This document shows, piece by piece, positions 29,103 to 48,363 of a stretch of 64,000 bases of DNA. Within the stretch, counting starts at the first letter, position 1. Every line of letters starts with the position of its first letter. The position numbers and the translations under genes were made by a program. The stretch comes from an uncultured Clostridium sp. (GTDB taxonomy: Bacteria > Bacillota > Clostridia > TANB77 > CAG-508). The notes under the pieces are model-generated. The model saw only the letters and a list, made by a program, of their open reading frames with translations, searched no databases and had not been told where the DNA came from. The stretch lies in the NCBI GenBank assembly GCA_948469315.1, contig CAOKLQ010000009.1, positions 11,168-75,167 on the forward strand. Reading direction: 5' to 3'.

Positions 29103-30026
29103 ATGAAAATTGGAAAATTAGAAGAAGTAGATATTAGAGAATTATGGAAGCATGAACAATATAACTTTTCAGATTGGTTAGCTAAAAAGGAAAATATTGA
29201 AAACTTAAATAATATATTAGGATTAACTTTAGTTGATATTAGTAAAGAAACTTATGTAGGGACTTATAGATGTGACTTATTTGCTAAAGATGAAACAACA
29301 GGTACTAAGGTTATTATTGAAAACCAACTTGAAATATCTAATCATGATCATTTAGGAAAAATAATTACTTATGCTTCTGGATTAGATGCAAAAGTTATTG
29401 TATGGATTGTAAAAGAAGCAAGAGAAGAACACAGAAGTGCTATTGAATGGTTAAATAATAATACTAATAGCAATGCAAATTTCTTCCTAATAGAAATTCA
29501 TGCGTATAAAATAGGAGACTCAGATAAAGCTCCTATGTTTCAGGTTGTAGAACAACCAAATGACTTTATAAAGAAAAATAAGTCTTTCAATAATAATGAT
29601 AGCATGAATAAATCACAATCTCAGAGAATTGAATTTTGGAATCAATTTAATGATGTAATTATAGAAAGAGGAAAGCCATTTAATGTAAGAAAAGCCACTA
29701 CTGATCATTGGTATAATGTTGCTATAGGTACAAGTGAAGCCCATATTGATATTACGCTAGTTAATAAAGATTCTGTAATTGGTGTAGAATTATATATAAC
29801 TGATAATAAAGGATTATTTGATAAACTTTATAATAAAAAAGATGATATAGAAGCAGATTTAGGATTTAAATTAGATTGGAGGAGATTAGATAACAGTAAA
29901 GCTTCAAGAATAATTTATCATATTAAAGGGCTAAATTTTGAAGATCATAGTAATTATAATGAATTAATGAATAGGACAATAGATATAGCAGTATTAATGA
30001 GAGACACATTTAAAAAATACATATAA
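29103..30026 (+). CDS. DUF4268-type protein with N-terminal PD-(D/E)xK-like nuclease core
   Basis: The N-terminal half RCDLFAKDETTGTKVIIENQLEISNHDHLGKIITYASG matches the D...ExQ nuclease-like core seen in this family. The C-terminal half is FWNQFND...WYNVAIG...VELYI...DLGFKLDWRRL. It sits directly upstream of an R-M system. Confidence 0.65.
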   Translation: MKIGKLEEVDIRELWKHEQYNFSDWLAKKENIENLNNILGLTLVDISKETYVGTYRCDLFAKDETTGTKVIIENQLEISNHDHLGKIITYASGLDAKVIVWIVKEAREEHRSAIEWLNNNTNSNANFFLIEIHAYKIGDSDKAPMFQVVEQPNDFIKKNKSFNNNDSMNKSQSQRIEFWNQFNDVIIERGKPFNVRKATTDHWYNVAIGTSEAHIDITLVNKDSVIGVELYITDNKGLFDKLYNKKDDIEADLGFKLDWRRLDNSKASRIIYHIKGLNFEDHSNYNELMNRTIDIAVLMRDTFKKYI

Positions 30027-30079
30027 TATATATTTGAGTACTATATAAACAACTTATTGTATTATTATATTAAGTAAAG

Positions 30080-31885: not shown

Positions 31886-34373
31886 AGAAAAGAACTTAGT
31901 TTTAGATGTTAGTGATAATGTAAATATAGAAGTATGGGATGAATCTAAGTATTATAATTTTGTTGATAATTTAGTAGGAAATAGGACCTACCAAAAAGAA
32001 GCAATACTAACTGCTTTGAAATTTATGTGCAGTGGTGAATATAAAAATACAAGTCAGTTAGCATATGAAAATTTTACAAAAAACGAATTAATTAAAGATG
32101 CATATGTAACATATGAAAACTTTGAAAGAAAGTTAAGTTTTCCTAATAGTTACTCAGCATCTATAGATTTAGCAACAGGAACAGGTAAAAGCTGGGTTAT
32201 GTATGCAATTGCTACAATAATGTTAGCTGAAGGAAAAGTAGATCAAGTATTAGTATTAGTGCCAAGTGTTACAATAGAAGAAGAACTAACAAAAAAATTT
32301 AGAAAATTTGCAATTGATGAAAATTTAAATGGTGCTTTAAAAAGTGTCCCACCAAAAATAACTAATGGATCTGAAAGTATAGTAAAAGGATGTATTTGTA
32401 TAGAAAATAGAGATGCTGTATATAAAAATTCAAGTAGTTCAATTTTAGATAGTTTAAATGGAAAAGGTCAAAAGACATTACTTTTATGTGATGAAGTCCA
32501 TCATGTATATTATTCTGAAGAAAACGAATGGAAATCATTTGTTGAAAAGATAAACTTTAAATATAATATTGGATTATCAGGAACATGCTATTATAAAGAT
32601 AATACATACTTTTCTAATGTTATATATAGATATTCGCTAAAACAAGCTATAGAAGATAGAAGAGTTAAATTGGTAGAATATGTTTCAGAAAGTAATATTC
32701 CAGTAAAAGATGAAGATAAGTGGAAAGTTATAATAAACTCTCATGAAGAAATAAAAAAGAAGATAAATTATCTACCATTAACACTTATAGTTACTGCAAA
32801 TGTAAATTCATGTAAAAAGAAAGCTAGTGAATTCAAAAGATTTTTAAAAGAATCTCTAAAATTAAATGATGAAGAAGTAAATGAAAAAGTTTTGATAATT
32901 CACTCAAAGTCTGATGCAGCATTAGATAGAATTAAATTAAAAAGTGTAGATAATTTAGATAGTAAAGTTGAATGGATATTTTCAGTTTCAATGCTAACAG
33001 AAGGCTGGGATGTAAAAAGAGTATTTCAAATTGTTCCTGACGAAGAAAGAGCATTTAATTCAAAATTATTAATAGCACAAGTATTAGGTAGAGGATTAAG
33101 AATACCAGTAAATTGGGATTATCAAGAAATGGGATTACCTAAAGTTACTATATTTAATCATGCAAAATGGGCAAGTAGTGTGAAAAAACTAGTTGACGAA
33201 GTTTTAGAAATTGAAAAGAAATTGTCAAATTCAATAATAGAAGATTCAGAATATAATTTTGAATTATTAAATGTTGATTATAAGCCAGATAAAATAGTCA
33301 CTAAAATAAAGAAAGAGGGAATGTATAACTTATTTGATAAAGGATATATTGTATTGCCAACTGATAGTCAAAATGAAACAATTAATGCAGATTTTGTTGA
33401 GGCTAATACTGATAAGATTAGATCGTGGATTACAACTATTTATCATAAGACTTATACTATAGATGATGTAGCAACTGCTATGTGGTATAAATTTGATGAA
33501 TTATCTGATGGTGAAGATAAGAATGAAGAACTTTGTAAAAAATATAAAGAAAAGTGGACAGTAGATAAATTAAAGAAAGTAATAAGTTTATCATTAGAGA
33601 AATCGGGAAATAATGAGATAACTGAAAAGCTAAAGCAGAAATTTCTATCTTCTATTGGAGTAATTTTTAGACAAGGTAGTTCATTTGTTGATTACAAAAT
33701 AATACCAGATAATTTTACTCAAATATCAACTAAAAGTATGCATAAAGATTATGTGAGTGCAAGTGCTTTAAACAAGGAGAAGGTTCTATTTTGGACATCA
33801 AGAACTGAGAAATATTTAAGTGAAGAAGAAATTGAGTTTTTTAATGAAGTTATAGATACTACTAATGCATATAGGCAAAAAGAAGTTAGAAATATTTACG
33901 ATTTTAAAACACCTCAAACATTTGTTATAGCAGACAGTGATCCAGAAAAGGAATTTATAAAGAAATTGACTGAGTTAAGAAATAACAATATAAAAAGTTG
34001 GGTAAAATCAAATTCTAAAGGATTCTACTCTTTTGAATACTCATGGAGAAAAGGTGAACATGCTCAAAGAGGGATATTCAATCCTGACTTCTTTATAATT
34101 TTTATGAATAGAGTTTTAGTAGTTGAAATAAAAAGTGATGAGCAAATAGCTAATCCTGAACCTGAAAATATAGGAAAACACAAAGCTGCAATAGAGCACT
34201 TTAAAGCTATAAATGAAAAGCTACATAAAGATAACAAGGATATAAGATATAAATTTACAATGTTAACTCCTAGGAACTATGAAGTCTTCTTTAATAAGTT
34301 GAATTCTGGAGACGTTTCTGATATAGATAGTTTTAATAGTGAATTAGATGCAACAATTTTGGAAAATAACTAA
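31863..34373 (+). CDS. res: Type III restriction enzyme Res subunit (SF2 helicase + C-terminal PD-(D/E)xK nuclease)
   Basis: It has Walker A LATGTGKSW, DEAH box LLCDEVHH and helicase motif VI QVLGRGLR. The C-terminal nuclease motif is NPDFFIIF...VLVVEIKSDE. Confidence 0.85.
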   Translation: MKDKIRIKEKNLVLDVSDNVNIEVWDESKYYNFVDNLVGNRTYQKEAILTALKFMCSGEYKNTSQLAYENFTKNELIKDAYVTYENFERKLSFPNSYSASIDLATGTGKSWVMYAIATIMLAEGKVDQVLVLVPSVTIEEELTKKFRKFAIDENLNGALKSVPPKITNGSESIVKGCICIENRDAVYKNSSSSILDSLNGKGQKTLLLCDEVHHVYYSEENEWKSFVEKINFKYNIGLSGTCYYKDNTYFSNVIYRYSLKQAIEDRRVKLVEYVSESNIPVKDEDKWKVIINSHEEIKKKINYLPLTLIVTANVNSCKKKASEFKRFLKESLKLNDEEVNEKVLIIHSKSDAALDRIKLKSVDNLDSKVEWIFSVSMLTEGWDVKRVFQIVPDEERAFNSKLLIAQVLGRGLRIPVNWDYQEMGLPKVTIFNHAKWASSVKKLVDEVLEIEKKLSNSIIEDSEYNFELLNVDYKPDKIVTKIKKEGMYNLFDKGYIVLPTDSQNETINADFVEANTDKIRSWITTIYHKTYTIDDVATAMWYKFDELSDGEDKNEELCKKYKEKWTVDKLKKVISLSLEKSGNNEITEKLKQKFLSSIGVIFRQGSSFVDYKIIPDNFTQISTKSMHKDYVSASALNKEKVLFWTSRTEKYLSEEEIEFFNEVIDTTNAYRQKEVRNIYDFKTPQTFVIADSDPEKEFIKKLTELRNNNIKSWVKSNSKGFYSFEYSWRKGEHAQRGIFNPDFFIIFMNRVLVVEIKSDEQIANPEPENIGKHKAAIEHFKAINEKLHKDNKDIRYKFTMLTPRNYEVFFNKLNSGDVSDIDSFNSELDATILENN

Positions 34374-34505
34374 TATAGATAAAAGAGTGTACTAATAAAG
34401 TAACTCTTTTATTAATATTTATTTATAAGAATTATTATAAATAAGCTTTTGTAATTATATTATAAAAAATATAAATAATTAACAAATAATAAGTAAGGAG
34501 AAAAA

Positions 34506-36783
34506 ATGGATAAAATAATACAAATAATATCAGAAGAATTAAATATAAAATATACACGGAGTAGAAGCTGCAGTAAAATTAATAGATGAAGGAAACACTA
34601 TACCATTTATTGCACGTTACAGAAAAGAAGCAACAGGAGGTCTAAGTGATGAAATTTTAAGAGAACTAGGAGAAAGACTAAATTACCTAAGAAATTTAGA
34701 ACAAAGAAAACAAGAAGTAATAAAAAGCATAGAAGAACAAGGAAAACTAACAGATAAAATAAAAAAATCTGTAGAAATTGCAAAAACCTTAGCAGAAGTA
34801 GAAGATATATATAGACCATACAAACAAAAGAAAAAAACAAGAGCAACAATAGCAAAAGCTAAAGGATTAGAGCCACTAGCTAAAATAATATATGAACAAA
34901 AAGAAACCAAAGACATAAACGAAATTGCAAAACAATACATAAATGTAGGGGTGGCGTCCTTAGACGACCCAAATATATCAAAACCTACAGACAAATCTAT
35001 GTCAGACACCGTAGGGGTGAACCACCTGTGTGACCTAAACGCACCAGAACCTACAACAAACAAAACATTAAATGACAACACTGTCTCAACTGCACAAGAA
35101 GCAATTGGGGGAGCCCTAGACATAATTGCAGAAATAATATCAGACGAACCAAAATATAGAAAAGAAATAAAACGTTTATGTTATAAAATGGGACTTATAA
35201 AAACAAAAGCAGTAGATGAAGAAGGAAAATCAAGTTATGAAATGTATTACGACTTCTCAGAAACAATTAAAACAATCCCAAGCCATAGAATACTTGCAAT
35301 AAATAGAGGAGAAAAAGAAAAATTTTTAAAAGTATCGTTAGAAAAACCAGAAGACCAAATAATAGGGTATATAAATAAAGATGTAATAAAAGGGAAAACA
35401 CAATTTACAACCATGTTAGAAGAAACTATACAAGATAGTTATAAAAGACTAATAGAGCCATCTATAGATAGAGAAATACGATCAGACCTAAGTGACAAAG
35501 CTGAAGAAAAAGCAATAAAAGTATTTGGACATAATGCAAAACAATTATTATTAGGAGCACCAATAAAAGACATAGTAGTTATGGGATTTGATCCTGCATA
35601 TAGAACAGGATGTAAAATAGCAATTATAGATGATACAGGTAAGTTATTAGACTATACAACAGTATATCCAACTCAGCCTCAAAACGATGTAGAGAAAGCT
35701 CAAAAAGAATTATTAAAACTAATAGAAAAATATAGTGTAAATATGATAGCAATAGGTAATGGAACAGCTTCAAGAGAATCTGAAATGTTTGTAGCAGAAA
35801 TGATAAAAAATGCTAAACATGAAGTGTTATATACAATTGTAAGTGAAGCAGGAGCATCAGTCTATTCAGCATCAAAACTTGCAACAGAGGAATATCCAGA
35901 TATCAATGTTTCAATAAGAGGAGCAATCTCAATTGCAAGACGTTTGCAAGATCCACTTGCTGAACTTGTAAAAATAGATCCAAAAGCAATAGGAGTAGGA
36001 CAATATCAACATGATGTAAATCAAAAGAAACTAGAGGAAAGTCTAGCAGGAGTGGTAGAAGGTGCAGTTAACAAAGTAGGAGTAGATGTGAACACAGCAA
36101 CATCATCACTTCTTTCATATATATCAGGTCTAAATAAAACAATAAGTAAAAACATTGTAAAATATAGGGACGAAAATGGAAAACTAAAAAATAGAAAACA
36201 GTTATTAAAAGTGCCTAAGCTTGGAAAAGTAGCATATGAGCAATGTGCAGGATTTTTAAGAATAATAGGAGGAGATAATCCAATAGATACTACTGCTGTT
36301 CACCCAGAAAGTTATGAAGCAGTAGAAAAGTTACTACAAAAAATAGGTTATCAAAAAGAAGATTTATTGCATAAAGAAAAAATAAAAAAATTAAGAGCAA
36401 AATTAAATGAGTTAAAGTTAAATGAGGTTGCTGGGGAATTAGAAATAGGGGAAATGACATTATCGGACATTATAGAAGAACTATCAAGACCAGGAAGGGA
36501 CGTAAGAGATGAAATGCCAAAACCTATATTAAGACAAGATGTACTAAAATTTGAAGATCTAAAAGAAGGAATGATATTAACAGGGACTATAAGAAATGTA
36601 ATAGATTTTGGAGCATTTGTGGATATAGGAGTAAAACATGATGGACTTGTCCACATATCAGAACTATCAGACAAATTCGTAAAAAATCCATCAGATATAG
36701 TGTCAATTGGAGATATTGTAAAAGTAAAAGTAATAGGAATAGATAATGAAAAACAAAAAGTAAAATTATCAATGAAAATATAA
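34506..36783 (+). CDS. tex: Tex/YhgF-like transcription accessory protein (S1 domain), read across a +1 junction at 34557-34560 and carrying a ~44-codon in-frame repeat insertion
   Basis: ATG 34506 follows AAGGAGA and gives MDKIIQIISEELNIKYT in frame 0. The +1 frame gives GVEAAVKLIDEGNTIPFIARYRKEATGGLSDE... through the YqgF/RuvC-like, HhH and C-terminal S1 domains (GTIRNVIDFGAFVDIG...GLVHISELS). The ORF track shows only 34951..36783 because that frame has no start codon before 34951. Confidence 0.85.
34557..34560 (+). other. +1 frame junction at in-frame CGG-A (ACA CGG A) in tex
   Basis: Ten nt lie between ELNIK and VEAAVKL where orthologues have 3 residues. Skipping C gives ELNIKYTGVEAAVKL. 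Frame 0 stops 10 codons later. Confidence 0.6.
34944..35076. repeat. Two tandem ~66-nt GC-rich repeat units inserted in frame within tex
   Basis: The units begin TGTAGGGGTGGCGTCC... and CGTAGGGGTGAACCACC... and end ...GTCAGACAC / ...AAATGAC. They encode VGVASLDDPNISKPTDKSMSDTVGVNHLCDLNAPEPTTNKTLND between conserved AKQYIN and VSTAQEAIGGALDIIAE. Confidence 0.7.
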
Positions 36784-37427: not shown

Positions 37428-38168
37428 TTATTGTATTGGATCTGAACTTTCTTCTACTTTTTGAACTTCTGTATCAGTTTTTCCAGCTAAGTTTTCATAA
37501 AAAGCAATTGTTGAAATTTGTATATAAGGCATAAGCCATAATAAACCTATTCCACAAGAAAGCATTGCAAGGAACATCCAACCAATAAATGTAAGTTGTA
37601 GCCAGAAGAATTCCCATCTATGTCCAGTCATTAATTTTTCACTTTCTTGAACAGCTTCTTTTGCAGTCATATTTTCATTGTCAAATACTATGTATAAACT
37701 TAACTGATATAAATAGCTTTTGATTATTGTATATATTAAACTTACAAAATAAGCTATACCACCAATTACAGCTAAAATAACTCCAACTGATGAACCAGTT
37801 GCTGACATAGCTATTCCTATAACCATAACTATTATTGAAACAATAACTAGAATTGCTGGAACAAGAAGTTTTACTAAAGTCCAACCTATAACCCCCCATA
37901 CTTTTCCAAATGAATTAAATCCATCTGAGAAAAATCCTACATAAGAAATTTCTGTACCTCTTTTTAATTTCATCATTGTAATTAAAAATCCAAAAGATAA
38001 TACTGGAGATATAACAGTTGCAACTAAACTTCCAACAAAAGGTATAAGATTTAATACAAAGCTAATTAAATAAACTAAAACTGAAAATACTAAAGTTGCA
38101 AGTGCTGCTTTTCCCCACTTTCCTGTAAGACTTTTACGTGCCACAGCTCTTATTTCTGATGATGTCAT
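37428..38168 (-). CDS. DUF975-family integral membrane protein
   Basis: ATG 38168 follows GGGGGAA. The protein reads MTSSEIRAVARKSLTGKWGKAALATLVF..., is polytopic, and ends in an acidic tail. Confidence 0.75.
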   Translation of the reverse strand: MTSSEIRAVARKSLTGKWGKAALATLVFSVLVYLISFVLNLIPFVGSLVATVISPVLSFGFLITMMKLKRGTEISYVGFFSDGFNSFGKVWGVIGWTLVKLLVPAILVIVSIIVMVIGIAMSATGSSVGVILAVIGGIAYFVSLIYTIIKSYLYQLSLYIVFDNENMTAKEAVQESEKLMTGHRWEFFWLQLTFIGWMFLAMLSCGIGLLWLMPYIQISTIAFYENLAGKTDTEVQKVEESSDPIQ

Positions 38169-38296
38169 AATTAATTCCCCCTTTATTTTATTATATATAT
38201 TAATATATTTATTAATACCAAAATTAATGATTAACATATAAATTATAAGATATATACTTACAAAATAATATGTTAGTATATTTAAATTTATGTTAC

Positions 38297-39346
38297 TTAT
38301 AATTCATTTTGAATTTCTTGTATTTTATTATATTCATTTTCTAATAATCCTAAGAATACTTTTGTAATTTCTGGATCAAATTGTGTTCCAGAGCATCGTT
38401 TTATTTCATCTATTACTAATTTTAAAGGTAAAGGATCCCTATAAGATCTTTTAGATGTCATAGCATCAAATGTATCTGCAATTGCTGCAATTCTTGCCAT
38501 ATAAGGTATACTTTCTCCAGAAAGCTGACCTGGATAACCTCTACCATCAAATCTTTCATGATGATGTTTTACAATTGGAATAATACTTTTAAAAATTGTC
38601 GCATTAGTTAAAATATGTTCTCCAATTATAGGATGATTTTTTATTTGAGAATATTCGTCATAATCTAATTTAGACTCTTTTAATAAAATACTATCAGGTA
38701 CTCCAATTTTTCCTATATCATGGAATAAGCCACCAATTCTTAAAGTTCTTAAATCTTCTTGAGGTAACTCTAATTTTTCACCAATTAAAACAGAATATGC
38801 CGATACTCTATCAGAATGACCTCTTGTATAAGGGTCTTTTGCTTCAACCGTATATCTTAATGTTTCTATACTTTCCATATAAGCCTTTTCTAGTTCAGAA
38901 TTTGCATAAGAAAGTTCGTTATTAATTCTTTTTATTTCATTCATTTGGGCTATAGATTTAATTCCAGATTCAATCAAAAGTAATAATTGATCAAATTTAT
39001 CACTTTTCTCACAATAACCTTGAATATCTAATCTTCTAATAGTATCAAGTGGCGGAGCTAAATCCTTATGACCAGTTAAAAGTAAAATATATAGCTCTTT
39101 ATTAAACTTACGTATTTGCTCAACAACTTGATCACCATGCAAAGGATACATCATAAAATCTAGAATCATTAAATCAAAATGTTCATTTTTTATAAGTTCT
39201 ATAGCTTTAGTAGGATCTGTAACACCAGTGAAATCATAACCAGAGCGCTTTAAAAAAATAGATAAAGAATCAACAATACCCTCTTCATCATCAACAGCAA
39301 TAATTTTATATCCAGAAGATTCTACTGTCTGCATATTTTTTCTCAT
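38297..39346 (-). CDS. Response regulator: receiver domain + HD-GYP (c-di-GMP phosphodiesterase-type) output
   Basis: ATG 39346 follows GGAGGC. The receiver reads KIIAVDDEEG...DLMILDFMMYP...LLTGH, and the output domain reads GHSDRV...LFHDIGK...HHERFDGRGYP. Confidence 0.88.
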   Translation of the reverse strand: MRKNMQTVESSGYKIIAVDDEEGIVDSLSIFLKRSGYDFTGVTDPTKAIELIKNEHFDLMILDFMMYPLHGDQVVEQIRKFNKELYILLLTGHKDLAPPLDTIRRLDIQGYCEKSDKFDQLLLLIESGIKSIAQMNEIKRINNELSYANSELEKAYMESIETLRYTVEAKDPYTRGHSDRVSAYSVLIGEKLELPQEDLRTLRIGGLFHDIGKIGVPDSILLKESKLDYDEYSQIKNHPIIGEHILTNATIFKSIIPIVKHHHERFDGRGYPGQLSGESIPYMARIAAIADTFDAMTSKRSYRDPLPLKLVIDEIKRCSGTQFDPEITKVFLGLLENEYNKIQEIQNEL

Positions 39347-39597
39347 ATTATGCCTCCTACACAAATTAAACATAAATAAGTCTAATTTTAATAAAACTAT
39401 TATATATACATATTTTAATAAAATCAATAGAAATTGCTAAAAAATGTAAGAAAAGGACGAAAAATGGTTACTATTCATATACAAAATTCCGAAATATATA
39501 TTTTACGGGCCATTAGTAATGGCTCATTTTTCAAAGGATAAGAAAAAAACAAGGAAATGGACTTTTATATTGATACAAAAGTCCACCACTTTGTCTA

Positions 39598-41595
39598 TTA
39601 AATTGGTATACTTATATAAAAACAAGTTCCTTTTCCTTCTTGAGACTCAAAACTAATATCTCCATTAAAATGAGCTTTTATTGTAGAATACGACATAAAC
39701 AGTCCAAGTCCAGAGCCATTCTTGCCTTTTGTTGTAATCATTTCTTTAAATAATTTAGACTTAACTTCTTTGCTCATTCCCATTCCAAAGTCTTGAACTG
39801 AAATTAAAAGACTTCCATCTTTTTTATCAAAATTTAAGTTAATTTGATTGCCTGTTTGTCCATTATAGCTTTGGATTGCATTTGAAATCATGTTATTTAC
39901 AACTTGTACTAAACTATTAACATTTCCATCTAAAACAGTATTTTTATCAATATTTAAGTTTATATTTAACGTTATTAACGAGTTTTTAAGTTCATGTTTC
40001 ATTAATATATCTACACGTTTTATTAATTCATCTATTGTAAAATCAACATCATTATCTGAAGATAATGTAACTGCTTGTCCTTTAACTGTAGTTATAATAT
40101 CTGACATATATTCTGTATATTCTTTTATTTTATTAACCCAAGTTTGCATATCTTTTGCAATTTCATGATGATCTTCATTTGTAACATCTAGATCACCAAT
40201 AGAACTATCATATTCTTTTATTAAATCATTTAGACCTTCTGTTGCTCCAGAAATAGACATTATGGGTGTTTTTAGGTTATGAGATATTCCACCAATTAAT
40301 TGTCCAAGTGATGCTAAACGTTCTTTTTCCATAAGCATATTTTGGTTATTTTGTAGTTGTTTAATATTTTGTGCAGTTAATGTTTGAATTTTATTAAATG
40401 ATTTAGTTAGATCACTTATTTCGTCATTTGCAGTTATTGGTAAATTTTTTGAGTATATTATATCATTTGAATTAGATATATTCTCCATACCCTTAACAAC
40501 ATCTTTTATATCATTTGAAAATGATTTACCTATATAAAATATAAATAATCCATTAAATATCATAAGTGCAATTGCTACCATAATAAAAGGTGTAATAAAC
40601 GTATTTTCAAATACAAAATATCTTATTCCAACAAAGTAGTCACCCAAGGTAGTATGTATTTTGGTAACACAACCTTCAACATTTTGTCCATAGTATTCAT
40701 AAACATGTCCATCTGTATTTTCATAAAATAATTTAATATAATTTTTTAAAAAGGTATTTAATTCTACTGGAGAATAATATACTTGGTTTGTGTCACAAGA
40801 AAGTATGAAGATTGTATCATTTTGTGAGTTTAAAGTAATATTGCTTAATATATTTTTTGCTTCTTCTAAATCATAAGTAGTATTATCTAAAAATCTTGAA
40901 TCTAGTTCTTGTTTATAAAAATAATTTATAAGATTACTTTTTTCTGTTGTCATTAAAGATAATGCTATTAACAAAATTAATACAAAAGAATATAGAAAAA
41001 GCGGTAATATTTGTATTAATAATTTCTTATATAAATTTAACCTAATTCCATTTGAATCATTTTTTCCTAAAGAATCTGTTTGGATTAATTTTGTAACAAA
41101 GAAATTTCTACTAACCATATAGGATATAATTGCAAATATTGCAGACAAAGAAAATACAACAGTAGATATTCTTATTATTAATTCAAATTCAGTATTAAAG
41201 ACAACTAGCAATAATGCGACTATAATAGAAGGAACAAAGAGTTCTATTATAAACATAACGAAAGGATAGTTAAAACACTTTTTTCTGATTTTTTTAATTT
41301 CGTTAGCCGAAAGGTTAGCTATATTTTTGCTAGAAATATTTAATTTTCTATATACAAGTCGTAAAGTAATATAAAGCATACATGTTAAAATTGAAATTAG
41401 AATTATACATTGATCTGTATATTTAATTCCAACTGTTTGAATTTGAAAGTCATTATCTATTGAGTTTACAGGATAATTTAGTATTTTAGGCAATGCAAAA
41501 TATAAAAGTATACAAGTAAATATAAAAATTATTGTATTAAGTAATGCTAATTTTTTCGGAGTATTTATATTAAATATTTTTTTTGTTTGTTTCAT
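39598..41595 (-). CDS. Membrane sensor histidine kinase
   Basis: ATG 41595 follows GGTGG. There are several N-terminal TM helices and a ~110-aa extracytoplasmic segment. The H-box is GGISHNLKTPI, the N-box NNMISNAIQSY, G1 VQDFGMGM and G2 GSGLGLFMS. The start overlaps the NRPS stop by 26 nt. Confidence 0.88.
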   Translation of the reverse strand: MKQTKKIFNINTPKKLALLNTIIFIFTCILLYFALPKILNYPVNSIDNDFQIQTVGIKYTDQCIILISILTCMLYITLRLVYRKLNISSKNIANLSANEIKKIRKKCFNYPFVMFIIELFVPSIIVALLLVVFNTEFELIIRISTVVFSLSAIFAIISYMVSRNFFVTKLIQTDSLGKNDSNGIRLNLYKKLLIQILPLFLYSFVLILLIALSLMTTEKSNLINYFYKQELDSRFLDNTTYDLEEAKNILSNITLNSQNDTIFILSCDTNQVYYSPVELNTFLKNYIKLFYENTDGHVYEYYGQNVEGCVTKIHTTLGDYFVGIRYFVFENTFITPFIMVAIALMIFNGLFIFYIGKSFSNDIKDVVKGMENISNSNDIIYSKNLPITANDEISDLTKSFNKIQTLTAQNIKQLQNNQNMLMEKERLASLGQLIGGISHNLKTPIMSISGATEGLNDLIKEYDSSIGDLDVTNEDHHEIAKDMQTWVNKIKEYTEYMSDIITTVKGQAVTLSSDNDVDFTIDELIKRVDILMKHELKNSLITLNINLNIDKNTVLDGNVNSLVQVVNNMISNAIQSYNGQTGNQINLNFDKKDGSLLISVQDFGMGMSKEVKSKLFKEMITTKGKNGSGLGLFMSYSTIKAHFNGDISFESQEGKGTCFYISIPI

Positions 41596-44500
41596 TATTA
41601 TTACCACCTATAAAATTATTTTTTTCTAAATATTTAATTAATTTTTCAATATATTCATTAGTAATTTGTGGCCAAATTAAATTGTTTTTTAAAAGTAGCT
41701 TATTTGTAATAGTATTATTTAGTTCAACATTACCATTATTATTTAAATTATTCAAATAACTTGTTATTCCAAAATATAATTTATTTGAAGACATAAGTTT
41801 ATCTTTAAATTCACACATATCAACAGACTTAATATTATAACCAGTATCAGTTATAAATTTTACCAAAGTTTTACCATTTAAATAATTTGAATTAAATAAA
41901 TGATATATTTCTAAATTTTTATTTTGTAAATTTATTAAATTTACAATAAAATTAGCACAAATATCAACAGGTGTAAATTCAAAATTAAAATTTAATAATT
42001 CCTTTGGAACGCAGCCTAAGCAAATAAAACTAGTTAATCTGTTTAAAAATGCATTTTCTTTAGCATTTTCTTGGAACATTCCATCTGTAAATCTGTTAGT
42101 AATATTCCCAATTCTATAAATTGATGCAACAAGTCCATTTTTGCACTCATTTATAATTAATTTTTCAGCTTCAAATTTACTTCTTACATATACATTATCT
42201 TTATATTTTTGACCAATATATAAATTAGACTCATCAAACTTAGAATTGTTTGGAGTTTCGACTAATCCATATCCAGATACAGATAATGTAGAAACATAAT
42301 GCAGTGGTATATTATTCTTTTTGCAAAATGTAACTACTTGTTTAGTTCCCTTTACATTTGTTTTGAAAAATTCATCATAACTACCATAATGTTTTACAAT
42401 AGCTGCTGTATCTATAACACAATCAATGTTATTACTTATTTTATCATATGTTTGTGAAGATAAACCTAAATTATCTTGCAAAATATTACCTTCAATAATA
42501 TTAATACGATTTTTATATTTTAAAAACTCATCTTCTGAAAAATATAATTTAAACTTAGAGTTTAATCTTTCATATGAAGAAATGTTACTTTTTTCTCTAA
42601 TTATACAATATATTTGTGATGTAGTTAACACAAGCAAGTTATGCAAAATATGAATTCCTAAAAAGCCTGTTGAACCAAATAATAAAATATTATTATAGTT
42701 AAACTTTTTATTTATAGGTTTGCTTATTTGGGAAATATCTGGATAAGTATTTTTATTATAATAATCTGAATTTGTATGGTCTAATATGTAATTTGCAAGT
42801 TCTCTAATTGTTTTATATTCATAAAAGACTTGAGTATTAACATCTATACCATTTGTGTAAAGCATAGTTTGGGCTTTTATTAAAATAAGAGAATCTATAT
42901 AATATTCAAATATATTAGCAGTTACACTTATTTTATCTTCTACATTTAATAATTCATAAAAAATGTTTTGTAATAACTCTTCTAAATTATTCTCAGGTGG
43001 CGTATAAGGAGCCTGTTTTATTTCTGGAATAGGTAAAAGTTTTTTATCTACTTTTCCATTAACACTAAGAGGTATATTTTCTAATCTAATAAAATATTTT
43101 GGAATCATGTATAATGGTAAGCTCTTACTTAAGAATAAATCTAAATTATCTAAGTCCTTATCGCAAATAGAGGTATAATAAGCACATAATATTTTTTGAT
43201 TATCTATATTAATTGTTGTTATATAACAATCTTTTATTTTATTATGTTTTAGAAGATTAGATTGAATTTCTCCTATTTCAATTCTAAATCCATTTATTTT
43301 AACTTGAAAATCTGAACGTCCAAAATACTCCATAGTTCCATTATAATATAACTTAGCTAAATCACCAGTTTTATATAATATTTTTGTGTTATCAAAAGGG
43401 CTTATTATAAAAGAACATTTATTGGCATTTTCTAAATTTATATATCCAGAAGATAAACAGTCTCCACCTATATACATTTGTCCAAGCATACCACATGGGA
43501 CTAAAGATAAATTATTATCTAAAATATAAATATTAACATTATCTATAGGTTTTCCAATTGGAATGGAAGTATATTTTTTATCTTTTTTTGAATATTCATG
43601 TATCATACAGCCAACAGTTGCCTCTGTAGGTCCATATTCATTATAAATATGTAAATCATTTATAAATTTAGATGAGATTTTTTCACAGGACTCTATGGAA
43701 AGCAGATCTCCACCTACAATCAATTTATTTACAATAGATTCAGAACAATCTATATCTAATAATAAATTTAAATGTGCAGGAGTAAGTTTTATAATATGAA
43801 CCTTTCTATCTTCTATTATAGACTTTAGTAATAATTGAGGATTTTCATTTTCATATATATATATTGTATTACCAGTTGTTAAAGGCGTATAAATAGAAGT
43901 TACAGTTAAGTCAAAAGCAATTGATGAATACAATGGAAAATTAGTATTTTTGCCTGAAACATATTGTCTTTTACAAAAGCTAATATAGTTTGATAAACTT
44001 TTATTACATATACTAACCCCCTTAGGATTTCCAGTAGAACCAGAAGTATATATTATATATGCTAAAGAATCATCTTTAATTTTTGAGGTATTAAAAGCTT
44101 TAGAAAAATTAGTGTCTAAAATTTCTAAATCAATTATATATTTGCTATCTTTTATTTGACTTATGCTTTTTTTATTTTTATTATTAGATAAGACTATTTT
44201 AGCGTTACTATTTTGAATAATGTATTTTACCCTATGTATAGGATATTTAACATCAATAGGAATATAGCAAGCTTCAAGTTTTAGTGTAGCTAAAATACTA
44301 ACAATTAGTTCTATAGAGTTTTCCAAAAACAAGCAAATTTTATCATAAGGCTTAATGTTCTTTTTAGATAATATGAAAGATAAATTGTTAGCCATACAAT
44401 TTATCTCTTTATATGTATAAGACTTTTCTTTATCACATATAGCAATATTATTAGGATTAAGTTTTACTTGATTTTCAAAATCTCTTATAACAGGAATATT

Positions 44501-45847
44501 AATTATATCTAATTTTGTATTATTATATTTATTTAATATAAAATCTTTTTCATCAGGTGATAAAATATCTATATTTTTTAGTAATATATAAGGATTATTA
44601 ATAACCTGATTAATTATGTGCATAAGTCTTTTATGTAGTAAAATTATATCTTTTTCGTGGAATAAATCTAATTTATAATCATAGTAAATAGAAAGTAATC
44701 CTGTATCATCCATATCATGTATATGTATATCTAAATTATTAGCAACTGTATTATTAAAAATCCAATTTGTATGATATTTTATATTAGATGTAGAATTATT
44801 ATTTCTAGCATTTTGGTAAGATAAAGCTACATCATATAAATTTTTAGAAAAGTTAAATTTCTTTCTTAAATCATTAAGTAAAATATTAAAAGGATATCTT
44901 TGGTTTCTAAAAATAGAAAATTCTGTATTTGAAAAGTCTTTTAATAACGAAATATAAGTATTATTTAAGTCAATATGAGTTTTAAAAGGAACTGTACTTA
45001 TAAACATTCCAATAGTATTTTTTTGGCTAAAATTACATCTATTAAGTACAGGAGTTCCAACAATTGGATTACTAACATTATTAATTTTAGATAAATAAAT
45101 ACTAAGTGCACTCATAAAAATACTATAAGCAGATGTTTTATATTCTGCAAAAAAGTTAGATAAACTATTACAGAAGTTTTTACTTAAACAATAAGATTTT
45201 CTTTTAGCTAAGCAAGAATTGGAATTTGTATCACAAATATAAGAAAAAGAAAGTGAGTCAAACTTAGAATCCCAAAATTCTTTTGATTTTAAAAATTTGG
45301 AACTATTTAAATATTCTTTTTCTGAATTTATAAAATCTATGTAAGAATAAGATGTATTATCAACTGGTTTATTATTTAATAAATTATCATAATTTGTAAT
45401 TATTTGATTTGTTAAAACAGTCATAGTCCATGCATCACAAATAATATGATGCAATTTTGCAATAAATCCTCCATGGCCATTTGGAAATTTAAAAATCGTA
45501 AAACTAAATAAATTATTATCAATAAGATCAAAACAACTATTAGTAACTTTAGTTTCTAAGTGATTAAGCTGTTTTTCATCTTCTAACTCTATTATTTCAA
45601 AATCTTCATCAACAAAACAATTAACATATTGTAATACAGAATCATTTTTAAGTAAAAGTCTTAATCTTATACCATCATTATTTTGTATAAAAATATTAAT
45701 AGATTTTTTTAATAATTCAAAATCTACTTTTTCATCTATGGTAAGAGTACCAACAAGGTTACCTATAGTACTTCCTTTATAATATTGCTCAGTAAGCCAA
45801 ATTGATTTTTGCGGGTTAGTTAATTCAAATAGTTGTTTTTTTTCCAT
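41570..45847 (-). CDS. Single-module non-ribosomal peptide synthetase, domain order C-A-T-R (terminal thioester reductase)
   Basis: The C domain has HHIICDAWT (HHxxxD). The A-domain cores are YIIYTSGSTGNPKG, NEYGPTE, YKTGD and GRSDFQVKINGFRIEIGEI. The carrier-protein serine motif is YYIDSLILIK. The R domain has LLFGSTGFLGIHIL (NAD(P)-binding) and YVRSK (YxxxK). ATG 45847 follows AGAGGGA; the ORF track GTG at 45856 is too close to the RBS. Confidence 0.9.
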   Translation of the reverse strand: MEKKQLFELTNPQKSIWLTEQYYKGSTIGNLVGTLTIDEKVDFELLKKSINIFIQNNDGIRLRLLLKNDSVLQYVNCFVDEDFEIIELEDEKQLNHLETKVTNSCFDLIDNNLFSFTIFKFPNGHGGFIAKLHHIICDAWTMTVLTNQIITNYDNLLNNKPVDNTSYSYIDFINSEKEYLNSSKFLKSKEFWDSKFDSLSFSYICDTNSNSCLAKRKSYCLSKNFCNSLSNFFAEYKTSAYSIFMSALSIYLSKINNVSNPIVGTPVLNRCNFSQKNTIGMFISTVPFKTHIDLNNTYISLLKDFSNTEFSIFRNQRYPFNILLNDLRKKFNFSKNLYDVALSYQNARNNNSTSNIKYHTNWIFNNTVANNLDIHIHDMDDTGLLSIYYDYKLDLFHEKDIILLHKRLMHIINQVINNPYILLKNIDILSPDEKDFILNKYNNTKLDIINIPVIRDFENQVKLNPNNIAICDKEKSYTYKEINCMANNLSFILSKKNIKPYDKICLFLENSIELIVSILATLKLEACYIPIDVKYPIHRVKYIIQNSNAKIVLSNNKNKKSISQIKDSKYIIDLEILDTNFSKAFNTSKIKDDSLAYIIYTSGSTGNPKGVSICNKSLSNYISFCKRQYVSGKNTNFPLYSSIAFDLTVTSIYTPLTTGNTIYIYENENPQLLLKSIIEDRKVHIIKLTPAHLNLLLDIDCSESIVNKLIVGGDLLSIESCEKISSKFINDLHIYNEYGPTEATVGCMIHEYSKKDKKYTSIPIGKPIDNVNIYILDNNLSLVPCGMLGQMYIGGDCLSSGYINLENANKCSFIISPFDNTKILYKTGDLAKLYYNGTMEYFGRSDFQVKINGFRIEIGEIQSNLLKHNKIKDCYITTINIDNQKILCAYYTSICDKDLDNLDLFLSKSLPLYMIPKYFIRLENIPLSVNGKVDKKLLPIPEIKQAPYTPPENNLEELLQNIFYELLNVEDKISVTANIFEYYIDSLILIKAQTMLYTNGIDVNTQVFYEYKTIRELANYILDHTNSDYYNKNTYPDISQISKPINKKFNYNNILLFGSTGFLGIHILHNLLVLTTSQIYCIIREKSNISSYERLNSKFKLYFSEDEFLKYKNRINIIEGNILQDNLGLSSQTYDKISNNIDCVIDTAAIVKHYGSYDEFFKTNVKGTKQVVTFCKKNNIPLHYVSTLSVSGYGLVETPNNSKFDESNLYIGQKYKDNVYVRSKFEAEKLIINECKNGLVASIYRIGNITNRFTDGMFQENAKENAFLNRLTSFICLGCVPKELLNFNFEFTPVDICANFIVNLINLQNKNLEIYHLFNSNYLNGKTLVKFITDTGYNIKSVDMCEFKDKLMSSNKLYFGITSYLNNLNNNGNVELNNTITNKLLLKNNLIWPQITNEYIEKLIKYLEKNNFIGGNNNETNKKNI

Positions 45848-46236
45848 AAAATTCACAGTCCCTCTTTATTTTATTAATTTTGAAAATTATATACTATAAT
45901 ATATTATAAATCAAACAAATTTGACAAAATTTGCGAAAAAATATAACTATTTAAAAATAAGCTTAGAATACTAAATTTGAATAGTAGAAAAATATAGGGA
46001 GTAATAGGAAGATTGCCTTTTTATAGAAATTTTTTCAAAGAGTATTCTTCCTAAATATGTATTTAATAATAAAATTTGGAAATAATAAAAAAGAGATCCT
46101 AAGATTTTCTAAAACATGAAAATCTTAAGAAAATCTAAGGCTCTCCATAATTATCTTCTACAGAAAATTCTCATTCATTATGAGAATTTTCCTAGAATAT
46201 AAAAAAGAAACAAAAATACATATTTTGGAGGTTTTT

Positions 46237-47370
46237 ATGAATAATTTTGAAAAAGCAAAAAAGCTTAAGAAAATAATTATTAAAATGGTAATTGTGGGAT
46301 TTGCTATTTTGCTTTTTTGGTGGTTATATACAATGTACTCAAAAATAGAAATAGCACCCAATATAGGTACAAATTATAATAATACCACAATAGAAAGAAC
46401 ATCATTATCGGTAATAGAGCAAGAAGAAAAAAGTAAAACAGTATCAGATGTAATTGAAGAGGCTAATAAAGCAGTTGTTGGAATTTCTAAAATAAAAAAC
46501 GTTGGTGCAAGTGTATTTACAAATGATAGTACAAAAAATTTAGGAATTGGAACAGGTTTTATTGTATCTGAAAATGGCTATATAATAACAAATGAACATG
46601 TTTCAGGAGAAAAATATAGTAATTGCTATGTAACACTAGAAAATGGAAAAATATATAATGGAAATGTAGTTTGGTCAGATAGTAATTTAGACTTAAGTAT
46701 TGTAAAAATAAACATGAAAGGTTTGGACTACATGAAATTAGGGGATTCAAATGATACAAAAATAGGACAGTCGGTATATGCAATAGGAAACCCTATAGGA
46801 TTTGAGTTTCAAAGAACAGTAACATCGGGAATAATAAGTGCGGTAGACAGAACAATAAAATTTTCAGAAAATGGACAAGATGTGTATATGGCAGATTTAA
46901 TTCAAACAGATGCAACCATAAATCCAGGAAACAGTGGGGGACCATTAATAAAGCCAAATGGAACAGTTATTGCAGTAAATTCTGTAAAAATTACAAGTGC
47001 AGAAGGAATAGGTTTTGCAGTTCCAATAAATGTTATAAAACCAGTTGTAGAAAAATTTATAGCAAATGGGAATTTTGAAGAAGCAACACTTGGAATATTT
47101 GCATATGACAAAAATGTAATTCCATATTTAAATAGCAATATGAACTTTGAATCAGGCATATATGTTGTACAAATTACGAAAAACAGTGCAAGCGATCAAA
47201 CAGGCTTGCAAGAAGGAGATATATTAGCAAAAATAGATGGAATAGAACTAAATAAAATGAATGATCTAAAAGCATATATATATACAAAAAATCCAAATGA
47301 CGAAGTACTACTCACAGTTATAAGAAATAAGGAAACTTTAGAAATTAAGGTTAAACTAGGGAAAAAATAA
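46237..47370 (+). CDS. htrA: HtrA/DegP-family membrane-anchored serine protease with C-terminal PDZ domain
   Basis: ATG 46237 follows GGAGG, and the TM anchor is MVIVGFAILLFWWLY. The catalytic triad contexts are ITNEHV, DLSIVKI and GNSGGPL. The PDZ-like segment is GIYVVQITKNSASDQTGLQEGDILAKIDG. Confidence 0.88.
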   Translation: MNNFEKAKKLKKIIIKMVIVGFAILLFWWLYTMYSKIEIAPNIGTNYNNTTIERTSLSVIEQEEKSKTVSDVIEEANKAVVGISKIKNVGASVFTNDSTKNLGIGTGFIVSENGYIITNEHVSGEKYSNCYVTLENGKIYNGNVVWSDSNLDLSIVKINMKGLDYMKLGDSNDTKIGQSVYAIGNPIGFEFQRTVTSGIISAVDRTIKFSENGQDVYMADLIQTDATINPGNSGGPLIKPNGTVIAVNSVKITSAEGIGFAVPINVIKPVVEKFIANGNFEEATLGIFAYDKNVIPYLNSNMNFESGIYVVQITKNSASDQTGLQEGDILAKIDGIELNKMNDLKAYIYTKNPNDEVLLTVIRNKETLEIKVKLGKK

Positions 47371-47430
47371 ATTGCATTATGTAAAGATATATGATATAAT
47401 TTTAAAAGTGCAAAAAAGGAGGCGGTGTAT

Positions 47431-48363
47431 ATGATGTTTGAAACTGATAATATGTATCGGCCTATATACGGAGAAGTGGAGGAATACTTCAATCAACCAG
47501 TAGTATATAATGGTCGGAACTTTATTTTAACTTTGGTTAAAGAAGGAATGGAAGGAGAGCCAATTGTTATTATCAACAATGGATGGGCAATGAAAGATCC
47601 TTTTTCAAAACCTATAAAGCCAAGTTATCAAAATTGCCAAATATATGGCTTGTATTACAAACTAAGTGATCCAAAATTACTAGAACCCAAAAGAGGCAGA
47701 ATAAAGAGAATTTGGAAAAAACATCCAGAATATTTTGGGTGCAGGGGTCTTTTAGATTCAGGAAAAGAACTTGAAAGATTAGTAAAAGACCAAATGTCAT
47801 GGGAAAATATTATACTAGTAGGTTTTACAAAATCTGCTACTATGATTTTAAATGGCATAAGCTGGTCAGAAAATGTGACAATTGATGCAATATGTCCAAT
47901 TTTTAAAGGGACTTATTCTGTAATGCCAGAAGTAATGAAAAAACATTTACATTGTTTTTGGTACTTAATAAGTTGGATATATTCGGGACATTTAGTAGAT
48001 GATGACATTGCTGTTGGAGCAAAATATTTAGAAGAATCAGACTATGCAGGATTAAAAAAAGCGGATGTAAATGTTATTATTTCTATTCTTGATAGAGAAG
48101 TTGAACACACATGGAAAGATGTTATACATCCAGTTAATTTATTTTTTAAGATTTGCTCTCCAATTATAGATGGCATAATCTATAAAGAAGAAGGTGAGCA
48201 GCCTCACAAGTCAAATGGTTTTTTGTCATATTTAACTCAACGTCCGCCCTTTAAGAATAAAATTATAGAGAATGGACATGTATATTCTAGTATGCCAACA
48301 ACTTTGAATCATCCCATAGTAAAATCGATGATCCAAAAACAAATTTATCAAAAGCAAAGATAA
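47431..48363 (+). CDS. Hypothetical cytoplasmic protein (no recognised domain), compositionally atypical
   Basis: AGGAGG lies 8 nt before ATG 47431. It is an uninterrupted 310-codon ORF with visibly more G/C-containing codons than its neighbours. It holds two of the three frame-0 CGG codons not at frame breaks (47458, 47515). Confidence 0.55.
   Translation: MMFETDNMYRPIYGEVEEYFNQPVVYNGRNFILTLVKEGMEGEPIVIINNGWAMKDPFSKPIKPSYQNCQIYGLYYKLSDPKLLEPKRGRIKRIWKKHPEYFGCRGLLDSGKELERLVKDQMSWENIILVGFTKSATMILNGISWSENVTIDAICPIFKGTYSVMPEVMKKHLHCFWYLISWIYSGHLVDDDIAVGAKYLEESDYAGLKKADVNVIISILDREVEHTWKDVIHPVNLFFKICSPIIDGIIYKEEGEQPHKSNGFLSYLTQRPPFKNKIIENGHVYSSMPTTLNHPIVKSMIQKQIYQKQR

Follow-up and report, generated by a model that had tools for sequence, protein, structure and literature searches.

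The 64,000-nucleotide (nt) stretch analysed here, called the window, belongs to contig CAOKLQ010000009.1 of the uncultured Clostridium sp. assembly GCA_948469315.1. Its subject is a set of three adjacent genes encoding a single-module non-ribosomal peptide synthetase (NRPS), a membrane histidine kinase and a response regulator. With a GC content of ~26% across the window, the DNA reads like a low-GC Clostridia chromosome from an uncultured host. The three open reading frames (ORFs) lie between 45847 and 38297, all on the minus strand. An earlier note on this DNA had given their coordinates and the motifs HHIICDAW, GSTGFLG and YVRSK, and all of these were confirmed in the ORFs. The overlap of NRPS and kinase genes which it described is exact, and its sequence of a terminator-like hairpin followed by a regulator with receiver (REC) and HD-GYP domains was also found as stated. 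The features are:

45886..45927, minus strand: sigma-70-like promoter hexamers 5' of the NRPS gene, TTGTCA-18-TATATT and TTGATT-17-TATAAT (consensus match only)
41570..45847, minus strand: NRPS, single module of condensation, adenylation, carrier and reductase domains (C-A-T-R), 1425 amino acids (aa); ATG at 45847, stop at 41572-41570 (Pfam, NCBIfam)
41570..41595, minus strand: overlap of 26 nt between the NRPS 3' end and the kinase 5' end; exact, with putative translational coupling
39598..41595, minus strand: membrane histidine kinase, 665 aa; ATG at 41595 after a GGTGG ribosome binding site
39556..39587, minus strand: terminator-like hairpin 3' of the kinase gene, 14 pairs then TCCTTGTTTT (pattern match only)
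39399..39427, minus strand: promoter-like site before the regulator gene, TTGATT-17-TATAAT (sequence pattern)
38297..39346, minus strand: REC/HD-GYP response regulator, 349 aa (Pfam Response_reg, HD_5, HD)

The NRPS start is preceded by the ribosome binding site AAAGAGGGA. Among related loci (numbered with the prefix L), a TTGATT...TATAAT pair stands at a comparable distance from the NRPS in L008 and L010, and a TTGCAA...TATAAT pair does so in L004. Orthologues of the kinase share its start residues (MKQTKK...). The 251-nt spacer between kinase and regulator contains both the terminator-like hairpin and the promoter-like site, and the regulator likely starts at ATG 39346, which gives the orthologue length of 349 aa, and not at TTG 39427. 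An Rfam scan of the window returned three tRNAs only, with no riboswitch near the three genes. The exact NRPS sequence had no entry in the protein collection; a near-identical contig, L012, was reached via the neighbouring Tex protein and differed by 4 nt over the 7551-nt three-gene region, with 2 aa differences in the NRPS.

Domain architecture and predicted product of the NRPS

Pfam found a Condensation domain (residues 6-437, 250 bits, E 4e-74), AMP-binding (457-802, 226 bits, E 7e-67), PP-binding (958-1021, 34 bits, E 3e-8) and NAD_binding_4 (1058-1301, 168 bits, E 4e-49) in this order, so that all four domains of a C-A-T-R module are present and the one-module architecture described in the earlier note stands. 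In NCBIfam, TIGR01733 scored 356 bits on the NRPS (cut-off 317), and TIGR01746 scored 210.7 bits on the reductase, just under its cut-off of 213.35 and over the full model length; the end-to-end alignments, to the AusA second module and to MxcG, were both far under the family cut-offs. The domains are placed as follows:

44537..45832, minus strand: condensation domain, residues 6-437, HHIICDAW, of the N-terminal 'starter-position' type (identity to the first C domain of two-module relatives)
43028..44479, minus strand: adenylation domain, residues 457-940, code DLTKIGEVGK (Asn) (Stachelhaus positions)
42785..42976, minus strand: carrier (T/PCP) domain, residues 958-1021, D985-S986-L987 (Pfam; alignment)
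41609..42691, minus strand: thioester reductase, residues 1053-1413, GSTGFLG, S1186/T1187, Y1220xxxK1224 (TIGR01746; PDB matches; alignment)

An alignment of 18 NRPS homologues (48-69% identity) revealed that the catalytic residues are invariant throughout: H133, H134 and D138 of the C domain, whose HHIICDAW has A where G is usual; the core motifs (YTSGSTGxPKG) and A10 K932 of the A domain; D985-S986-L987 of the carrier, with S986 as the carrier serine; and G1058, T1060, G1061, F1062, L1063, G1064, S1186, T1187, Y1220 and K1224 of the reductase. The essential carrier and reductase residues, whose loss the earlier note had regarded as fatal to its proposal, are among them. The closest solved R domains were the PCP-R didomain 6vtj (174 bits), which we take to be archaeal, and the AusA R domain (131 bits).

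Stachelhaus positions were anchored on GrsA PheA, for which the anchor gives back DAWTIAAICK. The code of the window NRPS is DLTKIGEVGK, which fits the Asn pattern DLTK[LIV]GEVGK and was present in 67/68 single-module homologues. We consider the extraction sound because, when applied to the two-module relatives, it recovered the canonical codes for Val, Gly, Thr and Pro. DLTKIGEVGK is one conservative change away from the classical Asn code DLTKLGEVGK. In PMC12283262 it is placed among Asp/Asn codes. The A domain is predicted to load Asn; the positions that the earlier note read as D-L-T-V-Y-E, and could match to no code, were misread, and the specificity is assignable.

The C domain begins at residue 6 with no carrier domain before it. 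It shares 37-44% identity with C1, the N-terminal C domain of two-module C-A-T-C-A-T-R relatives, and 24-28% with their internal C2; the R domain is 38-41% identical to that of the two-module relatives, which are metagenome sequences and not the published proteins. Because the C domain appears orthologous to C1, N-acylation of Asn followed by reductive release is the chemistry to be expected, and the product would be an N-acyl-Asn aldehyde or alcohol. Among the PDB matches of the C domain (phmmer) were the LCL-type domains of TycC (76 bits) and LgrA (70), the starter domains RzmA-Cs (39) and CDA-C1 (23), and also the C domain of TomB. A pyrazinone, which the earlier note had mentioned as a possible release product, was considered and rejected as unlikely, since a single N-acylated residue cannot form one. 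Ruminopeptin, a compound associated with Schneider and Balskus in 2018, is reportedly an N-acyl dipeptide aldehyde, and its synthetase is presumably of the two-module C-A-T-C-A-T-R architecture.

The earlier note had also listed genes missing from the neighbourhood. An AMP-ligase homologue is absent from the whole window (tblastn), and no phosphopantetheinyl transferase (PPTase), thioesterase, MbtH or second NRPS module was found among the window ORFs scanned with Pfam, which were the larger ones, mostly >=150 aa, so that a ~70-aa MbtH would escape. However, a ligase gene does stand beside the NRPS in many relatives (see next). The PPTase needed for the holo-NRPS must, to judge from the scanned ORFs, be encoded outside the window.

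Sensor kinase and response regulator

The kinase can be divided into two halves:

40384..41595, minus strand: sensor half, residues 1-404; ~6 transmembrane (TM) segments, ~115-aa outside loop (211-327), TM6 and HAMP-like linker (hydropathy, model)
39598..40383, minus strand: kinase core, residues 405-665; dimerisation and histidine phosphotransfer (DHp) domain with H-box SHNLKTP, and HATPase_c (Pfam HisKA, HATPase_c)

By hydropathy, a loop of 115 residues separates TM5 from TM6. Pfam matched HisKA (26.9 bits, at cut-off) and HATPase_c (66.7 bits), and the motifs SHNLKTP, DFGMGM and GSGLGL are all present, as in a class I (HisKA) transmembrane kinase. Residues 1-355 match no Pfam family, and Pfam found no REC or HPt domain in the protein, so it is not a hybrid kinase. 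The full-length model was poor (pLDDT, the predicted local distance difference test, 64), while that of residues 186-350 reached a pLDDT of 84.7 and contained a long helix and, after it, a helix/five-strand sheet. The best Foldseek matches of the loop, weak at E 0.015, came from histidine kinases (CzcS, KinD) and were extracytoplasmic sensor domains, and we tentatively assign the modelled loop to a PDC/PAS-like fold.

In the regulator, Pfam matched Response_reg (60 bits), HD_5 (127 bits) and HD. The receiver is complete (VDDEE, ILDFMM, LLTGH, CEKSD), with acidic pocket, phospho-Asp, Thr and Lys in place, and the HD-GYP part carries GHSDR, FHDIGK, NHP, HHHERFDGRGYP and DTFDAM, the stretch HHERFDGRGYP being read as before. 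These five motifs are taken here to hold the HD-GYP metal ligands. The NCBIfam model of NosR-family response regulator c-di-GMP (cyclic di-GMP) phosphodiesterases scored 209 bits, below cut-off. The best PDB match of the HD-GYP part was the V. cholerae 3'3'-cGAMP (cyclic GMP-AMP)-specific V-cGAP3 (5z7c, 156 bits), then the c-di-GMP phosphodiesterase PmGH (4mcw, 127). The regulator, which the earlier note had connected with c-di-GMP alone, is thus a predicted cyclic-dinucleotide phosphodiesterase, with either c-di-GMP or cGAMP as the probable substrate; no DNA-binding domain was found in it with Pfam or NCBIfam.

Conservation of the gene order

Starting from the NRPS, we found the order NRPS-kinase(-regulator) kept in every relative examined. 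L004-L012, with single-module NRPSs of 49-69% identity, are arranged as htrA (divergent), NRPS, kinase, regulator and further on tex. In the window the corresponding neighbours are:

46180..47370, plus strand: HtrA/DegP-type serine protease, divergent neighbour (Pfam, NCBIfam), marking the conserved chromosomal site
37428..38237, minus strand: DUF975 membrane protein 3' of the regulator (Pfam), a case of lineage-level synteny

The two-module relatives are ~2476 aa long, compared with 1425 aa in the window, and in L014, L015 and L097 a kinase also follows directly downstream. Its core is 58-62% identical to that of the window kinase, and its sensor is of the HisKA_7TM type, unrelated to the window sensor. 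L014 and L097 have htrA upstream and a REC/HD-GYP regulator beyond a mobile-element insertion, and L097 has the DUF975 gene as well. In all, htrA was upstream in L004, L006, L008, L010, L012, L014 and L097, as well as in many same-lineage loci from metagenomes, and not in distant lineages; DUF975 was 3' of the regulator in L012, L097 and many metagenome loci. Membership of HtrA in the system was considered and rejected as unproven, its adjacency tracking lineage synteny and being lost in distant lineages.

NRPS and kinase genes overlap by 11, 11, 17 and 4 nt in single-module relatives and are separated by 16 and 0 nt in two-module loci; across all loci the two genes overlap or all but touch. 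Overlapping frames were kept across ~30%-identity divergence, and from this tight junction we infer that the two genes are co-transcribed and translationally coupled, as the earlier note had proposed from the window alone. Co-transcription would also suit the idea that the kinase senses an external cue and switches NRPS production on or off; control of production by the kinase had been raised in the same note. We regard such direct control as very improbable: the only adjacent regulator lacks a DNA-binding domain, the cassette has no conserved transcription factor and none was seen in it at any locus examined, and the idea does not predict a sensor that changes with the A-domain code, as described below.

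Some loci carry additional genes. An insertion sequence (IS) element separates kinase from regulator in L004/L005, a FadD-like ligase is added in L006/L007, and in L010/L011 an MGDG-synthase-like glycosyltransferase and a PlsC-type acyltransferase lie directly 3' of the regulator. The latter pair (L010:17458-19307) occurs in one Asn-code species (P0059 cluster, 132 members) and may hint at lipid chemistry. Mobile DNA was seen in the kinase-regulator spacer at L004:13526-14515, L014:17459-22339 and L097:17341-21163 (Transposase_31; a TraG/type IV secretion system-coupling protein with DnaJ-like genes), and the spacer seems to be a preferred insertion site. L017 has an unexplained ~2-kb gap from the kinase to the regulator gene (~12000-14087).

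The same arrangement was recovered when the sensor region alone was used as the query. Among 1.84 billion proteins it matched 224 representative clusters at E <= 1e-3, and nearly all full-length matches were kinases of ~620-700 aa. With an alignment of distant sensors as the query, we collected 80 metagenome loci, many labelled human gut and a few bioreactor or fermentation; 54 of them had >=4.5 kb of upstream DNA and 63 had downstream DNA, and the counts refer to these two sets. C, A and R domains lay upstream on the same strand in 53/54 loci, and in 49 of those 53 a single-module NRPS ended <=400 nt from the kinase. Downstream, a receiver domain was found within 4 kb in 54/63 loci, and REC plus HD-GYP in 45/63. 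Survey of the gene order had been set beforehand as a test on which the idea of a small-molecule, two-component and cyclic-dinucleotide circuit could fail; the order is kept in all relatives examined from the NRPS side and in 53/54 loci found from the sensor side. Together with the covariation of sensor and NRPS type described below, this leaves the circuit proposed in the earlier note in good standing as a prediction from sequence.

The sensor-recruited loci have at least 12 types of A-domain code, including Asn, DVAYLGGICK, DAIFGGTMFK, DILQ[ML]GM[VI]WK, DIFLIGLVYK, DVWHFSLVDK and DSELTAEVCK, of which we take DILQ[ML]GM[VI]WK to be Gly-type, DVWHFSLVDK Ser-type and DSELTAEVCK His-like. A gene for a FadD-like AMP-ligase (AMP-binding plus AMP-binding_C_3) adjoins the NRPS in at least four code groups. 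Its position varies (divergent upstream, co-directional upstream, or between NRPS and kinase), and neither the window nor its closest relatives have such a gene. The genes, all beside an NRPS, are:

L006:7919-9655, FadD-like ligase
L035:3967-5676, FadD-like ligase
L056:3911-5479, FadD-like ligase
L092:8052-9692, FadD-like ligase
L094:8119-9723, FadD-like ligase

Two further observations concern these loci. The NRPS frame is interrupted in L030, L033, L036, L037, L040, L042 and L084 (longest ORF 803-1185 aa), and the downstream kinase of the same seven loci still matches over sensor and core; they could be assembly errors or signal-negative, receptor-positive variants. In the DAIFGGTMFK group (L069:11964-12932; L065, L070, L076, L077, L083, L085, L086) the regulator consists of a receiver and a ~200-aa C-terminal part that matches no Pfam family and is not HD-GYP, and the kinase core is of a different lineage (~0.3 identity).

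Covariation of NRPS and kinase sensor

The alleles at this site differ in a patterned way. Loci with the code DVAYLGGICK resemble the window in Tex (76-81%), kinase core (~66%), REC (~77%) and HD-GYP (~64%), whereas their kinase sensor is only 27-29% and their A domain 30-33% identical. Asn-code loci of similar Tex distance (Tex 75-79%, kinase core 64-66%, REC and HD-GYP similar to those of the DVAYLGGICK loci) have 59-62% identity in the sensor and 55-61% in the A domain. When all locus pairs with a kinase-core identity of 0.65-0.75 were compared, same-code pairs (n=32) had identities of 0.55 in TM1-5 and 0.48 in the loop, and different-code pairs (n=122) had 0.27 in both. L075 (DAIFGGLMFK) offers the converse: its kinase core is unrelated to those of the DAIFGGTMFK group (0.33), while the identities in TM1-5 (0.43), loop (0.39), A domain (0.46) and C domain (0.41) are the highest seen between groups.

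Along the kinase, each non-Asn allele shows a jump in identity to the window at residues ~386-421, from 14-40% to 83-94%, and the 7TM kinases of two-module loci are no exception; residues 421-455 are 83-94% identical across all alleles. The REC domain is 75-90% identical between alleles of the lineage. The jump, at the sensor/DHp junction, and the comparisons above indicate that NRPS and kinase sensor half make up a variable unit, and kinase core and regulator a constant one.

Such a pattern could also be produced by physical linkage during block replacement around an ordinary secondary-metabolite gene, whose N-acyl amino aldehyde would inhibit proteases of host or competitors, with the kinase and regulator as a separate system for sensing the envelope or environment at the same site and in the same operon. 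In its favour, C-domain identity to the window is 37-44% in the two-module relatives, whose architecture is that of the published protease-inhibitor family; lineage synteny, seen in htrA, tex and DUF975, keeps the site in place; and the variable block is contiguous DNA. However, linkage alone leaves it unexplained that the same domain-boundary junction recurs in at least six allele types, that NRPS and sensor stand together on an unrelated core (L075 against the DAIFGGTMFK group), and that 53/54 sensor loci have a single-module C-A-T-R NRPS upstream; the overlapping frames, conserved over so much divergence, speak against it too. Since the block boundary recurs at one domain junction in many allele types, since NRPS and sensor re-associate on an unrelated kinase core, and since the sensor family almost never occurs without the NRPS, we argue, short of proof, that NRPS and sensor form a functional unit, and we consider the explanation by linkage unlikely. 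Protease inhibition is reported for the dipeptide aldehydes of gut Clostridia (PMC8210680, PMC8518294).

Correlations, pairwise and partial, are given without P-values since the loci are phylogenetically non-independent. In the partial correlations, computed from such non-independent pairs, the TM1-5 bundle was most strongly associated with the C domain (0.48, compared with 0.21 for the loop). With the C domain selecting the acyl chain, this value can be claimed for a rival in which the kinase monitors the cell's own product: the product would serve primarily as antimicrobial, protease inhibitor or membrane lipid, and the kinase would sense it, or the membrane perturbation it causes, so as to adjust physiology or immunity, as kinases of the NisK/BceS type do, with no density signal involved. 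The NRPS/sensor covariation applies to it equally, and the glycosyltransferase and PlsC-type acyltransferase right after the regulator in L010 and L011 and the frequent FadD-like neighbour would fit as well. We nevertheless hold it to be quite improbable. Across groups, no gene for immunity, transport or lipid handling is kept with the cassette, its output is phosphodiesterase action on a cyclic dinucleotide and not a transcription factor for resistance genes, and the non-independence of the pairs weakens the correlation on which it draws.

Comparison with known systems

C-A-T-R single modules, REC/HD-GYP regulators and synthase/kinase pairs are each already known. Among the nearest enzymes are the reductase-terminated NRPSs making (N-acyl) dipeptide aldehydes in gut Clostridia (Guo et al. 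2017; ruminopeptin). The enzymes of this group have two modules. Through the two-module metagenome relatives, the window NRPS shares with them the C1 lineage (37-44%) and the terminal R domain (38-41%), and the hosts are low-GC gut Clostridia in both cases. Like the window, the two-module relatives examined have the same htrA-flanked site and a kinase immediately downstream. The window locus is different from that family in having one module instead of two, so that a pyrazinone is impossible, in its fixed Asn code, and in a sensor of 6 TM segments plus loop instead of HisKA_7TM.

In the Rpf system of Xanthomonas, which uses the diffusible signal factor (DSF), RpfF is the synthase, RpfB an acyl-CoA ligase, RpfC the sensor kinase and RpfG a REC/HD-GYP protein. 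The likeness lies in a gene for a synthase of a lipid-like signal clustered with a multi-TM kinase, in the HD-GYP regulator and in the acyl ligase often adjacent. However, the synthase here is an NRPS and not of the crotonase family, the kinase is non-hybrid and the cassette comes from a Firmicute; the sequences are related in their generic domains only, and the resemblance is one of function.

The staphylococcal agr locus has a hypervariable block (agrB-3'/agrD/agrC-5') and, next to it, a conserved kinase half of AgrC and AgrA. In the locus described here, too, the putative signal gene and the sensor half make up a contiguous hypervariable block, flanked by kinase core and regulator as the conserved part, and several alleles occur at one chromosomal site. 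The locus differs in the predicted non-ribosomal N-acyl amino aldehyde or alcohol, as against a ribosomal thiolactone peptide, and in its phosphodiesterase output, as against LytTR; no precursor of an autoinducing peptide, AgrB protease or LytTR regulator was found at the window or the related loci.

In the alpha-hydroxyketone systems CqsA/CqsS of Vibrio and LqsA/LqsS of Legionella, a synthase gene stands beside that of a 6-TM kinase which binds a hydrophobic ligand at the membrane. The pairing of a small-molecule synthase gene with an adjoining 6-TM sensor kinase is thus shared, but their synthases are PLP (pyridoxal phosphate)-dependent acyl-CoA transferases, they signal by phosphorelay to transcription, and the proteins are unrelated. 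The four-domain order of the window NRPS is identical to that of MxcG (myxochelin), NpsB/TomB (tilivalline/tomaymycin) and SfmC. MxcG aligned in NCBIfam over 5-1373 of 1442 with 450 bits, far below the 2300 cut-off. Unlike the window NRPS, these enzymes have aryl-carrier-protein donors encoded alongside, other A codes and no coupled kinase. PvfC-type (A-T-R) synthases of Pseudomonas and Burkholderia (pvf, ham) make an amino-aldehyde-derived autoinducer. They resemble the window enzyme as reductase-terminated NRPS-like signal makers and differ in lacking a C domain, in their N-oxygenase partner, and in a receptor that is not known to be related.

Proposed function

We lean, by a modest measure, towards reading the locus as a cassette of a signal synthase, its cognate receptor kinase and a cyclic-dinucleotide phosphodiesterase, all as judged from sequence comparison. 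The NRPS would load L-Asn on its carrier domain, and the N-terminal C domain would N-acylate it, probably from a fatty acyl-CoA; the recurrent FadD-like ligase beside the NRPS was counted in favour of such an acyl donor. The R domain would release N-acyl-asparaginal, which may cyclise via the side-chain amide or be reduced to the alcohol. This lipophilic product would be detected by the kinase made from the same mRNA, via its 6-TM bundle and PDC-like outside loop, and the kinase would control how far the adjacent REC/HD-GYP regulator is phosphorylated. In place of a transcriptional output, a cyclic dinucleotide (c-di-GMP or cGAMP) would be hydrolysed. With NRPS and sensor half swapped together, the alternative alleles found at the same site (htrA, NRPS-kinase, regulator, DUF975, tex) could represent specificity groups.

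Several points weigh against this cassette of synthase, receptor and phosphodiesterase. The structure of the product, its binding by the kinase, the nucleotide substrate of the phosphodiesterase and the phenotype are all deduced indirectly. The C domain scores nearer to LCL-type domains than to the structurally characterised lipid-starter C domains, and neither the AMP-ligase homologue nor, among the ORFs scanned, the PPTase is at hand in the window. No Foldseek match for the sensor loop reached E <= 1e-3. The terminator-like hairpin divides kinase from regulator, the regulator is missing in L008/L009, and the GGDEF/GGEEF motif is absent from all frames of the 64-kb window. As to the covariation, many loci are strains of few species, and the number of pairs is larger than the effective sample. 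In L041, L042 and L064, three distant loci with the Asn code, the sensor has only 28-29% identity to that of the window; the Asn code alone does not fix the sensor, and the acyl chain or plain divergence could be the explanation. Furthermore, NRPS and sensor DNA are contiguous, and if recombination broke within the conserved DHp, the same covariation would arise with no matching of ligand and receptor.

On a broader scale, it is possible, though somewhat short of an even chance, that these loci belong to an undescribed family of small-molecule cell-cell signalling systems in Clostridia of the human gut and other anaerobic Clostridia, in which an NRPS autoinducer, a 6-TM/PDC receptor kinase and a REC/HD-GYP protein lowering a cyclic dinucleotide come in many pherotypes (at least 12 codes plus the two-module 7TM versions) exchanged at one site, and that the published dipeptide aldehydes are partly signals. 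Search of the full-text literature, with the primary papers on the two-module family outside its scope, gave no description of an NRPS/kinase/HD-GYP cassette or its co-diversification. Few biosynthetic genes of the human gut microbiome are as widespread as those for reductase-terminated NRPSs, and the only proposal known to us for their native role is inhibition of host proteases. If the signalling reading is true, these molecules would have a bacterial function, namely self or kin signalling that controls second-messenger levels, a receptor would be supplied for each chemotype, and hard-to-culture anaerobes would hold a natural set of orthogonal signal/receptor pairs. The predicted ligands (N-acyl-Asn-H and analogues) are small and can be synthesised, which makes the hypothesis directly testable.

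Other features of the window

In the intergenic region of htrA and NRPS, an inverted repeat with 13-bp arms, CTTAAGATTTTC...GAAAATCTTAGG, lies at 46097-46130, 50-80 nt 5' of htrA. It could be an operator or attenuator, and it was not seen in the shorter htrA/NRPS intergenic regions of L004, L008 and L010. Two ORFs on the htrA side, 47425-48363 (312 aa) and 50270-50791 (173 aa), had no significant Pfam match, and the 312-aa ORF had no NCBIfam match either.

On the other side of the cassette, in the region 29103-36783, a type III restriction-modification cassette lies between an ABC-F gene and tex; the two genes adjoin in relatives. It includes:

29103-30026: DUF4268
30080-31885: Mod
31863-34373: Res

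Homology to full-length Tex is seen from residue 19 (34561), the frame is open from ~34546, and the first ATG/GTG/TTG is at 34951. From this, tex seems to have lost its 5' end to the restriction-modification insertion. The 610-aa form of tex is also present in the near-identical contig L012.

The region 52660-64000, beside two tRNA genes (52660-52733, 52831-52903), is likely an integrated mobilisable element and carries:

53176-53739 and 62367-63299: RepA_N proteins
54801-55973: MobA/VirD2 relaxase
60590-62017: tyrosine integrase

A minus-strand block of NUDIX, HD and metallophosphoesterase genes is at 56573-58537, where the GC skew changes sign. At the opposite end of the window (15-24358), there are very large predicted surface proteins (1593, 1579 and 3186 aa) with Listeria-Bacteroides repeats, SpaA-fold domains and a VWA domain, which may be adhesins; genes close to them encode proteins with a dockerin (4799-5779) and with RCC1 repeats (13356-14597).

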